From: Mizuhopecten yessoensis
Taxonomy: Eukaryota
Length of the DNA: 64,000 nucleotides
Assembly (NCBI RefSeq): GCF_002113885.1
Contig: NW_018404823.1
Location: 1,050,911 to 1,114,910, forward strand
Direction of reading: 5' to 3'
The stretch's first letter is position 1. Every line of letters starts with the position of its first letter. This document shows, in pieces, positions 10,001-16,000 of this stretch. The translations under genes and the position numbers were made by a program. The notes below the pieces were generated by a model. It was given only the letters and a program-made list of their open reading frames with translations, was not told the DNA's origin and searched no databases.

Positions 10001-13000
10001 TTTTCTTAAAATCACGACTGAATAACTAGACAAGATATTACAATTTGAAAAATATCTTTAAGTTTGCAAATCATTATCCATAATGGCCATTTTGAAATTC
10101 AATTACATTTGTTATATATATATTATACATGTCCTCTACATCAGCGTTCCTTGTCCGCGATGCTCTCAGCTTAATTGCTGCCTTCGGCTGTCTTTAGCCG
10201 AGGGGACTATATATTGGTTTTATATAATAGCTATATTTTCAATTATAGTATATCAATTCTATCTTCTTGTAATATGATGTATTTGTACATGTAACTGTTC
10301 TGTTTCACTATGTCTTGAAAAAGGAGCGGATCCCTCCGAAAATTTGACAACCTAAACTTGTCCACACTGTTGGAATTACTTCTTTGCCCCATATATTATA
10401 TATATATATCTGTTGATAAAACACCATATTAAAAGCTATTTCACTTGCCATGAATTCAATGATTGTTAAAATATGTTGAAGAAGAACCATTATTGTATCT
10501 GTTTATCAAGGAGTTTTATGTCCGTTCCCCCCTGCTGTTGTTCTTTGAGACTTACATGTATCCTGTGGTGTGTTGGGAGCTGTACAGTTGGTCAGGGTGG
10601 AGGTGGTGTTTGAGACACATTGTCCTGCAACATAGAAATCAGTAATTTTCAACCAACATCTTCAACCTCATAAATTGATGCCATATTTGTAATATACAAA
10701 TTAATGTATAAATATATCTTCAATATTTTATCCATTAAACAATACACAGAACCAACAACAATAAGTAAACTATGAAAAACCAGAGATGGTGTCGAAGCCA
10801 CCAAATTCTTCCCTGTTAAAAATTTGTATCGTATTAAAATATTTGTTTGTAAAAATGTAAAGTTCAAAACAGGTCAAAATTGTAAAAAAAAAATTATGTC
10901 ATTTTCAAATTTTAACTTCACTTCATCAATATTTTACCGCACAGGAACCTCTATGCAAAATATCAACACCCTAGTACACAAATTTAATGAATGGCAAGCT
11001 TCTAAATAACTTGCAGGTAAAACTTCAATGTTGATGTGCTTAAAAAAGTTAAGTCCAAAACAGGTAAACAAATTTCAAAATTTCAAAATTATTTGTTAAT
11101 TTTCACTTCACTGTATCAATATTATACCCCTCAGGAACCTCAATGCCAAATATCAGCATCCTAGTACATAAATGAAATGTATGACAAGCTTTTAAATAAC
11201 TTGCAGGTAAAACTTTAACGTTGATGTGGTTAAAAAAAGTAAAGTACAAAACAGGTGGAAAATTTCAAAAATTTGTGAAATTATTTTTGAATTGAACTTC
11301 ACTACATCAATAGCATACCCCACAGGAACCTCCATGCCAAATATCAGCATTCTAGTACATAAATGTAATGAATGACAAGTTAAGCTTCTAAATAACTTGC
11401 AGGTAAAACTTTAACATTTTCACGCTAACGCAGGGGGTAACGCTGTAGCTCTCTGTTCTTCAAACAGGCGAGCTAAAAATGAACATGAAATTGACATCCA
11501 CATGTTTCTATTATCAATTTCGATTTAAAAACTTATCATCAGTGTGCAAAACAAAGAAATCTGATGTATAAACTGATAATCTTCTACAGCCACTGAGTCT
11601 GCAGGGTTTCTCACTCTTGTAGGAGTCATTGGAGAAACCAAGTTAGTTGTTAAATATCTTTGGTAACCAACTGGTGGGTATCACATGCAACCCGCAAGTC
11701 ATTGCATTAGTCAATTGTTGAATTATGACATATTGTGACGTTATGTTTCATAGCATTTGTTTCTCTGATTGGAAACAAATAATTTACTAAATATCCTTTA
11801 TCAGTCAGAGTATCTCCAGATGTGATTACTCACCCTCCCCAGTCAGTGTATCACCAGCTGTGATTACTTACCCTCCACAGTCAGTGTATTACCAGCTGTG
11901 ATTACTTACCCTCCACAGTCAGCGGATCATCAACTGTAATTATTTACCCTCCCCAGTCAGTGTATCACTAGCTGTGATTACTTACCCTCCCCAGTCAGTG
12001 TATCCCCAGCTGTGATTACTTTCCCTCCCCAGTCAGTGTATCACCAGCTGTGATTACTTGCCCTCCCCAGTCAGTGTATCACCAGCTGTGATTACTTGCC
12101 CTCCCCAGTCAGTGTATCACCAGCTGTGATTACTTACCCTCCACAGTCAGTGTATCACCAGCTCTGATTACTTACCCTCCACAGTCAGTGTATTACCAGC
12201 TGTGATTACTTACCCTCCACAGTCAGCGTATCATCAACTGTAATTATTTACCCTCCCCAGTCAGTGTATCACCAGCTGTGATTACTTACCCTCCACAGTC
12301 AGTGTATCACCAGCTGTGATTACTTCCCCTCCCCAGTCAGTGTATCTCCAGCTGTGATTACTTAACCTCCCCAGTCAGTGTATCACCAGCTGTGATTACT
12401 TCCCCTCCCCAGTCAGTGTATTACCAGCTGTGATTACTTACCCTCCACAGTAAGTGTATCTCCAGCTGTGATTACTTACCCTCCCCAGTCAGTGTATCTC
12501 CAGATGTGATTACTTACCCTCCCCAGTCAGTGTATTACTAGCTGTGATTACTTAACCTCCACAGTCAGTGTATTACCAGCTGTGATTACTTACCCTCCTC
12601 AGTCAGTGTATCCCCAGCTGTGATTACTTACCCTCCACAGTCAGTGTATTACCAGCTGTGATTACTTACCCTCCACAGTAAGTGTATCTCCAGCTGTGAT
12701 TACTTACCCTCCCGAGTCAGTGTATCTCCAGCTGTGATTACTTACCCTCCCGAGTCAGTGTATCTCCAGCTGTGATTACTTACCCTCCCGAGTCAGTGTA
12801 TCTCCAGCTGTGATTACTTACCCTCCTCAGTCAGTGTATCACCAGCTGTGATTACTTACCCTCCCAAGTCAGTGTCTCACTAGCTGTGATTACTTACCCT
12901 CCACAGTCAGTGTATTACCAGCTGTGATTACTTACCCTCCACAGTAAGTGTATCTCCAGCTGTGATTACTTACCCTCCCCAGGCAGTGTATCTCCAGCTG

Positions 13001-16000
13001 TGATTACTTACCCTCCCCAGTCAGCGTATCTCCAGCTGTGATTACTTACCCTCCCCAGGCAGTGTATCTCCAGCTGTGATTACTTACCCTCCTCAGTCAG
13101 TGTATCACCCGCTGTGATTACTTACCCTCCCCAGTCAGTATATCCCCAGCTGTGATTACTTACCCTCCCCAGTCAGCGTATCTCCAGCTGTGATTACTTA
13201 CCCTCCCCAGGCAGTGTATCTCCAGCTGTGATTACTTACCCTCCTCAGTCAGTGTATCTCCAGCTGTGATTACTTAACCTCCCCAGTCAGTGTATCACCA
13301 GCTGTGATTACTTACACTCCCAAGTCAGTGTCTCACTAGCTGTGATTACTTACCCTCCCCAGTCAGTGTATCACCAGCTGTGATTACTTACCATCTCCAG
13401 TCAGTGTATCTCCAACTTTACACTGGTACCAGCCACAGGTAGCATTTCCACAACAAGTCGTGTTGTCTGTCAATAGACTGCAGCTATCTATGAATACAAA
13501 TTGCAACTTTTGATGATTTTTTTCGAAATTATTCACTCTAGTTTTTCATATATACAGTAACCTCCCTTAGCTTTTACTTCCATTTGGATATTACTGTACA
13601 GTTGGGCCTAGACATTTCCATTAACTAGGTAACCCAGTCGGTTAGAGTGATAGTGTAACAGTCTGGAGTCCTGGGTTTGAATCTAAATATATCAAATGAA
13701 ACATCTTATTCTGATAGGTACATTGTAGTATATCATAAATGACCTATATATGTTGAATGTGGTTAAAATTTAACTTTATTTGGTGCTTGCAGTGACAGAG
13801 TCTAAATCAAACAAATCAAAATTTTATGACGCAAAAATACATCGCCGCAACATCCAGATAACAGCAAACCATCTTCCAACTTGTTTATTATGCATTAATT
13901 ACTAACTTCTGTCGACTTTATTTTCATGACAGTGAAACTTGGATTTGCTTATTTTTGAGCAGGAATAACACACTTCATAAATAACATGTCAATAAAAGTG
14001 TGTGTTCAGCTGCAGGTCTCATTAATTTTCACTGTTTTCCTATGAGCTGTTGTACTAGTGTTGTTCAAGCGTACACAAGTGTACAGGTATGTCGCAACGC
14101 TATACAGCAAGTAAAGGGGGTAAATGATCTTACAAACATGGTCTCCTGTACAGCCAGGTAAAAAGTAATACAACAGGTTGTATATTGATGGAATCTGAAA
14201 ACAACTTGAACCATACTGACATGTTTTCAGTAAATACGTGTGTATAAACAAAGACTATATGCCATTGGATGATTCAACATTCATTTAACCACACAACCAT
14301 GCAGGGATCCAAAGAAAATTCCCCTGTTCTTTGTAATCTCCCCTGTGTGCTTCAAAATTCCATTTCAACCAAAAAATAGCCCTTTTCTCTTCAAAATATT
14401 TCCCCTTTATATGTTTTCTTTAAGGTTCAACAGTTAAAATGCATAACACTGCATATATATATTTTCTCGACATAATTTAAACAAAAGTTCTACAATTTTA
14501 AGCTAAAAATTCTTTAAAAATTGAAATATATTGCACACAGGTATGTCTGACAAAACATTTATCTTTTACCTTCATGACGCTAGAGCCTTGTATCAACACT
14601 TTAATTTCCCCCAAATCTGAAAAAGGGTAACTTCCCCTAAATCCTAGATTGATCCCTGACAACTTAATTGTAATGGAATGGACTGATGGAGTAAGGGGCC
14701 GCGGGTGGCCGAGTGTTTAACAAACAGTAAAGGCATTCGAAAGCACCAAATTTTAGCACACGTAATCATCAATTCCAAAATTTGACACACCAAAAAAGCT
14801 ACCCTGTTTTGAGCTAAAAACGCCAAATTATGGCCATGCCAAAATATTCCAAACACATCTGGAGTATATTTGTTGGTCAATTCATTGTACAGGTCACAAA
14901 CTATAAGTGAACATTAACATAGTAGGCTGTCAAAATGCAATAGAATTCCAAAAGTATAGTTCTCTAATCATTGTGCTATCATTACTCTCTGAAAAATAAA
15001 GGACTAGAAAAAACTTTTCTGATGTAAAATGGGAAAAAAATGATTCCTTGTAACGTACTTGTGATGGCGGGTTATCAAACTCTGGCTATAATTTGTTAAC
15101 TTTAACATATCATACATTTTATAAGCCGAGTGAAGAAGAAGATTTCAGACATAATAGCTATACGGTACCAGACTCATTTAAAAAAAAAAAAAGTAAATAA
15201 ATCAAATATAAAGAAGTATAATAACATTTATTACATACTTACTAATANTACATGTACCAGACTCATTTAAAAAAAAAAAAAAAAAGTAAATAAATCAAAT
15301 ATGAAGAAGTATAATAACATTTATTACATACTTACTAACAAATACGTTTTTTTTGCATATGTGATACGACACAATTTCTCTAATCCATATCAGCCCTTGC
15401 CATATCACCCCCCAAACCCTGTATCACCCCCCGCCGTACCACACCCCAAAACCTGTATCAGTCCTCACCGAATCAGCCCGCAAAACCTGTATCAACCCCC
15501 TCCGTACCACACCCCAAAACCTGTATCAGTCCTCACCGAATCAGCCCGCAAAACCTGTATCAACCCCCTCCGTACCGCACCCCAAAACCTGTATCAGTCC
15601 TCACCGTATCAGCCCGCAAAACCTGTATCAACCCCCGCCGTACCACACCCCAAAACTTGTATCAGTCCTCTCCGTATCAGCCCGCAAAACCTGTATCAAC
15701 CCCCGCCGTACCGCAACCCAAAACCTGTATCAGTCCTCTCCGTATCAGCCCGCAAAACCTGTATCACACCCCTTTTGAAAATTTTACGTTTTTCAATATT
15801 TCAAAAGAAAAATAGATCATAAGGTAGTAGCTTTTATTAGTAAGTATGTAATAAACAGAATAAAACACACCTTGTTCCATATCACACCCAGTATAAACCC
15901 TCGACCAATATCAGACCTCGGGCTGATATTGCAGTCTCGGTTGATACTTGGTGTGATATGAAAAATGGCATGTATTATTCTCCATTTATCATAGCTGTAA

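Follow-up and report, generated by a model that had tools for sequence, protein, structure and literature searches.

What happens to an exon when its last bases and its splice donor are repeated some 40 times at the start of the following intron? This question is raised by a gene in a 64,000-nt stretch of the genome of the scallop Mizuhopecten yessoensis (contig NW_018404823.1 of assembly GCF_002113885.1, positions 1,050,911 to 1,114,910), hereafter called the window. The gene encodes a membrane-anchored mucin of the CD164/MGC-24 family, and its exon 6 ends inside a long minisatellite, each unit of which combines a copy of the intron start with a copy of the exon end. The answer that we consider probable is a plain one: the array is a locally born, junction-spanning minisatellite and, judging from the annotated protein and from precedent, the spliceosome takes the first donor, the copies leave with the intron, and the protein is unchanged.

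The host gene

The annotated product, P0001, is a sialomucin core protein 24-like protein of M. yessoensis, 287 aa long, which is a single sequence shared by GenBank, RefSeq, and UniRef accessions (a cluster of 1) and has a 100% match to the final coding exon in this region of the window. Its family is given by the Pfam domain MGC-24 (PF05283; E 4.2e-21, 76.2 bits with a cut-off of 28.5), and its transmembrane helix and NYHTL tail are common to mollusc and insect relatives. Mapped back to the DNA, P0001 is divided into 12 exons that run from 29769 to 3806 on the minus strand, all within the window, and every intron is GT-AG (Table 1). The protein has three Cys-rich repeats, each divided among small phase-1 exons, and four of the exons are true micro-exons of 24, 15, 36, and 18 nt. 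Because the model contains micro-exons of 15, 18, and 24 nt, it is probably transcript-derived. The exon discussed here is number 6 once the 15-nt micro-exon at 17535-17521 is included, and the intron that follows it (13391-10625) is 2767 nt long. A homologue from Ylistrum balloti, P0017, has one additional Cys-rich repeat, and its model stops without a membrane anchor, which reflects either a truncated gene model or a protein that is secreted.

Anatomy and variation of the array

Read on the minus strand, the array divides from position 13391 onward into 42 units in register, each consisting of gtaagtaatcacag followed by 24 nt. Exon 6 terminates within the first repeat unit; thus, the unit spans the real exon-intron boundary. 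Tandem Repeats Finder (TRF) reports the array at 11802-13414 with a period of 38, 42.4 copies, 91% matches, and 0% indels, a length that comes from one assembly and may itself be off. TRF, the unit register, and the exon mapping of P0001 together confirm a preliminary description of this DNA, which had proposed about 42 copies of the exon 6 end plus its donor. Two of its details need adjustment. The "about 40 strong 5' splice sites" that it announced are correct in that many donors are reiterated, but the number is lower, GT being present in 33 of the 41 downstream copies, GTAAGT in 30, and GC in 2. Likewise, the unit does derive from the real exon end and donor, but the copy is inexact: the exon-end copies differ from exon 6 at three nearly fixed positions, at which the base of the exon is found in 2, 0, and 0 of the 41 copies.

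The 42 units comprise 26 distinct sequences. Concerted evolution has operated among the copies with the boundary unit excluded, as seen from the mean differences per 24 nt, which are 4.8 between copy and exon and 2.7 between copy and copy. Furthermore, when 19 nt of the unit are searched in the 988-Mb genome, all 24 matches fall within this array, and the reversed control has 0; therefore, the unit was born locally and is no chance match. An origin from a dispersed repeat family or a transposon was also considered and is ruled out by the uniqueness of the unit to the locus.

The copies behave as an ordinary minisatellite. In the part copied from the exon, 68 of 861 cells are variant, and in the two GT columns 8 of 82; the remaining intronic columns have 6 variant cells of 492. 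The GT columns are thus about as variable as the exon-copy part and more variable than the rest of the intronic part, which argues against selection for working donors.

Donor-spanning arrays elsewhere in the genome

The arrangement is found twice in the host gene, as a second, irregular array repeats the end of exon 3 and its donor (Table 1); donor-spanning arrays therefore occur at 2 of the 11 donors of the gene, and acceptor-spanning arrays at 0 of its 11 acceptors. Genome-wide, tandem triples were counted, defined as three copies of one word at 22-40-nt spacing; the values count matches, to which long arrays contribute most. The donor word GGTAAGT gave 10,330 triples versus 2,187 for the reversed word (4.7-fold) and 1,795 for GCTAAGT, the reverse of which, containing a CpG, gave 475. 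As single words, GGTAAGT and its reverse differ 1.2-fold (142,571 versus 121,094). The word AGGTAA, which overlaps GGTAAGT, gave 53,634 triples versus 13,399 for its control. The genome-wide enrichment of donor-overlapping repeats that the preliminary description had envisaged is thus found for the commonest donor words. Eleven arrays account for the first 100 GGTAAGT matches, and scaling from this ratio gives, very roughly, a thousand GGTAAGT arrays in the genome; it is likely that hundreds more donor-copying arrays exist besides the one described here. Acceptor words show no excess of triples genome-wide (TTTTCAG, 1,507 versus 1,597; TTTCAGG, 1,331 versus 1,662). As the tested words cover a small share of real acceptors, this donor-acceptor asymmetry is suggestive only.

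A sample of 11 GGTAAGT arrays, 11 GCTAAGT controls, 14 GGTGAGT arrays, and 17 TTTTCAG arrays was inspected individually. An exon-like start was defined as an acceptor plus an open frame upstream of the array, scored with an acceptor model built from the 11 sites of the host gene. At a score of at least 0, such starts were found at 7 of the 10 evaluable GGTAAGT arrays, 3 of 8 controls, 5 of 13 GGTGAGT arrays, and 32% of random positions; at a score of at least 3, the corresponding values are 3 of 10, 0 of 8, 2 of 13, and 9%. In the GGTAAGT loci, a symmetric detector flagged 7 donor starts, compared with 1 when the sequences were reversed; in the TTTTCAG loci, it flagged 2 acceptor ends, compared with 1 after reversal.

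The frames were also compared with Pfam, including all 28 on the donor side, one extra for L009, and 14 of 17 on the acceptor side (the other three lie inside an array). At three loci, an exon that ends in the first unit of the array has a match, namely, TMEM164 at L014 (E 0.0014), an Ig domain at L035 (9e-11), and VPS13 at L036 (2e-8). Further family support of this kind comes from a protein kinase on the opposite strand at L037 (E 2e-8), from a weak P450 match at L011 (Pfam E 0.21, with all six PDB matches being P450s at E 0.3-0.7), and from L010, where an ATPase exon lies immediately upstream of the array and on its strand. Among 133 candidate neighboring frames, 95 were compared with Pfam, of which 2 matched at E<=0.001. 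None of the control and acceptor-side frames tested reached a Pfam E of 0.01 or better, and one control, L017, itself has CAG/GTAAC copies after an exon-like stretch without a Pfam match. At L032 (570-3029, plus strand), an open frame of 820 codons, to which no Pfam family matches, extends precisely to the first donor of an array with 34-35-nt units. In all, arrays starting at exon ends were noted at L008-L011, L013, L014, L016, L032, and L034-L038.

Does the array alter splicing?

An intron of 14 nt is below spliceable length, a point on which the preliminary description was right. It had suggested that an individual 24-nt unit could enter the mRNA as an in-frame micro-exon and lengthen the second Cys-rich domain, and the unit does have the appearance of one: its phase is 1-1, no in-frame stop occurs in the first 41 units, AG precedes 40 of the 42, a branch-point-like CTGAC word lies at a fitting distance, about 24 nt upstream of the AG, and the gene has four micro-exons of its own. 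However, a length divisible by three has a prior of one in three, and, as only 1 in 63 single changes creates a stop, stop-free units are expected and are no sign of constraint. The 42 pseudo-acceptors have 4-7 pyrimidines in the 18 positions from -20 to -3, compared with 11-16 at the 11 real acceptors and 12-16 at the true micro-exons, and they contain 1-3 AGs from -30 to -3 (0-1 at real acceptors); AGs that would compete with the acceptor follow the branch-like word. The seven whole codons have 15 distinct variant alleles, of which 4 are synonymous and 11 nonsynonymous (possible, 18:44), a neutral-like pattern in small numbers. Annotated P0001 joins exon 6 straight to exon 7 with no unit included, and the Cys-to-Cys loop over this junction is of equal length in the Y. 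balloti homologue; a query with residues 26-210 (133 candidates) matched only P0001 and one Ylistrum protein, so that a unit-bearing form was not found, although this is a weak negative. Nor does the array resemble a recursive (ratchet) splice site, in which an acceptor YAG is directly followed by GT, as here CAG is followed by CTGG and the next GT is 24 nt on. With weak acceptors, neutral substitutions, and no trace in the annotated protein, inclusion of the units as micro-exons is very improbable. Productive use of alternative donors, also suggested earlier, fails on the reading frame. Exon 6 ends in phase 1 and the intron start reads GGT AAG TAA, a stop six exons before the gene end; therefore, every downstream donor retains an in-frame stop and no full protein can result. 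Use of such a donor would instead lead to decay or to a fragment without a membrane anchor. Later donors might be used at a regulated rate for precisely this outcome, either decay or a secreted two-domain fragment, as the stop is retained at all of them, the copies match U1 as well as the true donor does, and proximal pseudo-sites are reported to be used in human IFI6 and CBS (PMC1557585). On the other hand, the stop sits in an ordinary intron start and needs no array, human F7 is described as employing the first site only (PMC1557585), and a truncated protein was found neither in the P0001 cluster nor among shorter database proteins, for which a search with residues 86-160, itself a weak test, gave no candidate. 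Regulated use of later donors is quite unlikely.

Two other proposals consider the copies as binding sites for the U1 small nuclear ribonucleoprotein (snRNP). According to one, bound U1 strengthens the recognition of exon 6, copy number tunes its inclusion, and selection keeps donor arrays throughout the genome. Consistent with this, the exon 6 acceptor is the weakest of the 11 (score 1.9; 11 of 18 pyrimidines), albeit by a model trained on the same 11 sites that it scores. Furthermore, GTAAGT persists in 30 of the 41 copies with +3 to +6 scarcely varying, U1 binding just downstream of a donor is reported to enhance exon definition in human PAH (PMC5933811), and tandem arrays are enriched 4-5-fold for donor words and not for acceptor words. 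Opposite to this expectation, the GT columns belong to the most variable ones. Exon recognition would need no more than one or two downstream sites, the distance from the donor to the first copy is 38 nt, and in F7 no autonomous regulatory element is reported for the neighboring intron (PMC1557585). Overall, we regard a role in exon definition at this locus as unlikely. The other proposal, also part of the preliminary description, is that the array loads U1 and suppresses premature polyadenylation in intron 6. Suppression of polyadenylation by U1 is established, and the sense strand of the intron carries 31 GTAAGT words. However, a U1 telescripting element is expected in a long intron with cryptic poly(A) signals downstream, whereas the 2767 nt of intron 6 are short and contain 0 AATAAA and 1 ATTAAA; therefore, there is nothing for such protection to act on. 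Introns 1 and 5, with 15 and 6 AATAAA, respectively, have no donor array at their starts, and the probability of this function is practically negligible.

Proposed origin and persistence of the array

The explanation that we favor, a locally born minisatellite of which only the first donor is used, can be divided into steps, each of them putative. The array would have started when 38 nt spanning the exon 6/intron 6 junction were duplicated, with subsequent expansion and homogenization via slippage or unequal exchange, from which the exon would have been kept apart because of coding constraint. At splicing, the 5'-most donor would be chosen, as shown for human F7, and the rare use of a later donor would meet the stop two codons on, yielding decay or a short secreted fragment; leaky donor use would therefore be of low cost. 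The likely reason for the persistence of the array is thus that splicing likely uses the first donor alone. At the genome level, this predicts a filter by which donor-spanning arrays are tolerated and acceptor-spanning arrays are lost, because in the latter extra sequence would enter the mRNA.

Several observations weigh against this explanation. Among the copies, 2 of 164 cells at positions +3 to +6 are variant, a near-invariance that would be consistent with retained U1 binding as well, and U1 pairs at 8 of 11 positions with the copies and the true donor alike, so that U1 binding is compatible with the array despite the variation of GT. Real micro-exons of 15-36 nt are spliced by the host gene, the next one or two pseudo-sites are reported to be used as well in IFI6 and CBS (PMC1557585), and a single annotated protein says little on rare or decayed transcripts. 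In the genome, the excess of donor words exceeds what tolerance alone predicts; a putative added factor for the four- to five-fold excess, and a likely one, is that repeats arise more often within or close to exons. The donor word GGTGAGT has no clear excess of triples (4,558 versus 4,010 reversed, 1.1-fold), a result not counted as support since the reversed control, TGAGTGG, overlaps the donor word, and one array (C210) holds both. Finally, in the 600 kb beside the window, 0 of 35 arrays (69 ends) are donor- or acceptor-spanning at either threshold of the symmetric detector, which is insensitive: the focal array is detected at the looser threshold but not at the other, and the exon 3 array and the Pfam-confirmed arrays of L035 and L036 escape it. 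This result argues against a very high density of junction-spanning arrays.

The locus itself probably changes nothing in the protein, and its value is that of a pointer to a genome-wide, donor-biased class. We think it somewhat probable that such a census would hold, with many hundreds to thousands of arrays at donors and hardly any at acceptors. The wider proposal, in which this class arises by junction-linked birth or by stacked-U1 exon definition and in which copy number is a heritable dial on inclusion or decay across many genes, is doubtful as a whole, the functional dial being its uncertain part. If the genome does hold hundreds of donor-biased arrays, they constitute a natural experiment on how the first among equal donors is chosen, a choice so far known mostly from a few human genes, and the proposal that new introns are seeded by such repeats could be tested on them directly. 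On the practical side, exon ends with such arrays can be misjudged by gene predictors and read mappers.

Other features of the window

Table 1. Exons of the host gene and donor-spanning arrays in the window (the slash marks the exon-intron boundary)
Feature	Position	Strand	Remarks
Exon 1, coding part	29712..29769	-	Signal-peptide-like start; P0001 mapping
Exon 2	23016..23039	-	True 24-nt micro-exon; strong acceptor, 15/18 pyrimidines
Exon 3	21504..21596	-	93 nt; first Cys-rich repeat
Exon 4	20099..20179	-	P0001 mapping
Exon 5	17521..17535	-	True 15-nt micro-exon; acceptor 16/18 pyrimidines
Exon 6	13392..13487	-	96 nt, phase 1-1; residues 91-122 of P0001, exact match; Cys-rich repeat ending GDTLTGD
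Exon 7	10556..10624	-	69 nt; adjoins exon 6 directly in annotated protein
Exon 8	9756..9791	-	36 nt
Exon 9	8863..8946	-	Third Cys-rich repeat
Exon 10	6939..6995	-	P0001 mapping
Exon 11	5471..5488	-	18-nt micro-exon
Exon 12, coding part	3806..4038	-	Mucin stalk, transmembrane helix, NYHTL tail; Pfam MGC-24
Authentic exon 6 donor	13384..13394	-	ATG/GTAAGTAA; read-through GGT AAG TAA, stop at 13386-13384
Donor-spanning array, intron 6	11796..13391	-	42 units x 38 nt: 14-nt intron start + 24-nt exon-end copy
Second donor-spanning array, same gene	21107..21509	-	Irregular 29-62-nt units repeating exon 3 end + donor; 10 copies after true donor, 7 being CAG/GTAAA

Five more intronic arrays occur in the host gene, at 15388-15772, 18061-19507, 23548-24809, 10908-11415, and 20460-20857 (units of 34, 34, 146, 190, and 192 nt), none of which is junction-spanning. 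A 93-nt direct duplication at 15165-15338, whose copies flank the only N of the window (15248), may be an artefact of the assembly. The window further contains a local cluster of paralogues: CD164/MGC-24-like terminal exons with a mucin stalk and a transmembrane helix lie at 34168-34614 and 54349-54954, both on the minus strand (Pfam MGC-24 E 3e-4 and 0.03, below the cut-off), and candidate upstream exons of such paralogues lie near 56579-56641 and 62460-62498. On the strand opposite to the mucin paralogues are two long single-frame genes for Mab-21/cGAS-like nucleotidyltransferases, at 38715-40661 and 45679-47655 (Pfam Mab-21 and Mab-21_C above the cut-off), and a shorter Mab-21-like fragment at 43661-44098 between them.

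Comparison with known junction-spanning minisatellites

The host gene belongs with the CD164/MGC-24 family, which includes sialomucin core protein 24, porimin, and visgun, a likeness that does not extend to the array. For the latter, the closest parallels are found in human genes and in amphioxus. A literature search that reached few subscription journals found no genome-wide survey of junction-spanning arrays, nor any survey for molluscs. In another scallop, tandem repeats are reported as the largest repeat class, with 21.7% of the assembly (PMC10225492). In humans, repeat length is reported to affect splicing in some cases, in a work whose available text describes no survey of junction-spanning units (PMC10078293).

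In human F7, the donor of exon 7 is spanned by a 37-bp repeat (the intron 7 variable number tandem repeat, VNTR), and splicing is reported to use the first site alone, through oriented scanning (Borensztajn et al. 2006, PMC1557585). The two arrays have nearly equal unit lengths, span an exon-intron junction, and present the true donor followed by copies of equal strength. They differ in that F7 has 5-9 units with 4 exonic bases, whereas the scallop array has 42 units with 24 exonic bases and an intronic part of the form GT...AG, and in that first-donor use was demonstrated experimentally in F7 and is deduced in the scallop. The same report lists 10-25 reiterated donors after the authentic one in human IFI6 (6-16), CBS intron 13, LMNB2, and PDGF (PMC1557585), all of which resemble the scallop locus in having reiterated donors downstream of the authentic donor. 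Only the first donor is described as used in LMNB2 and PDGF (PMC1557585); in comparison with IFI6 and CBS, where later sites are also employed, any later donor of the scallop array retains the stop.

The "mirage" minisatellites of amphioxus, reported in Adh3, troponin C, the globins BflGb6 and BflGb9, and PGBD5, are said not to disturb splicing (PMC3087553, PMC3902484). Like the scallop array, they occur in a marine invertebrate, consist of tandem copies of an exon-intron boundary, and show concerted evolution that leaves out the boundary unit. The locus described here is therefore another example of a known arrangement, of the F7 type or the "mirage" type. The amphioxus mirages, as reported, are found at both 5' and 3' boundaries and as single-gene cases, whereas the scallop counts suggest many arrays with a bias to donors.

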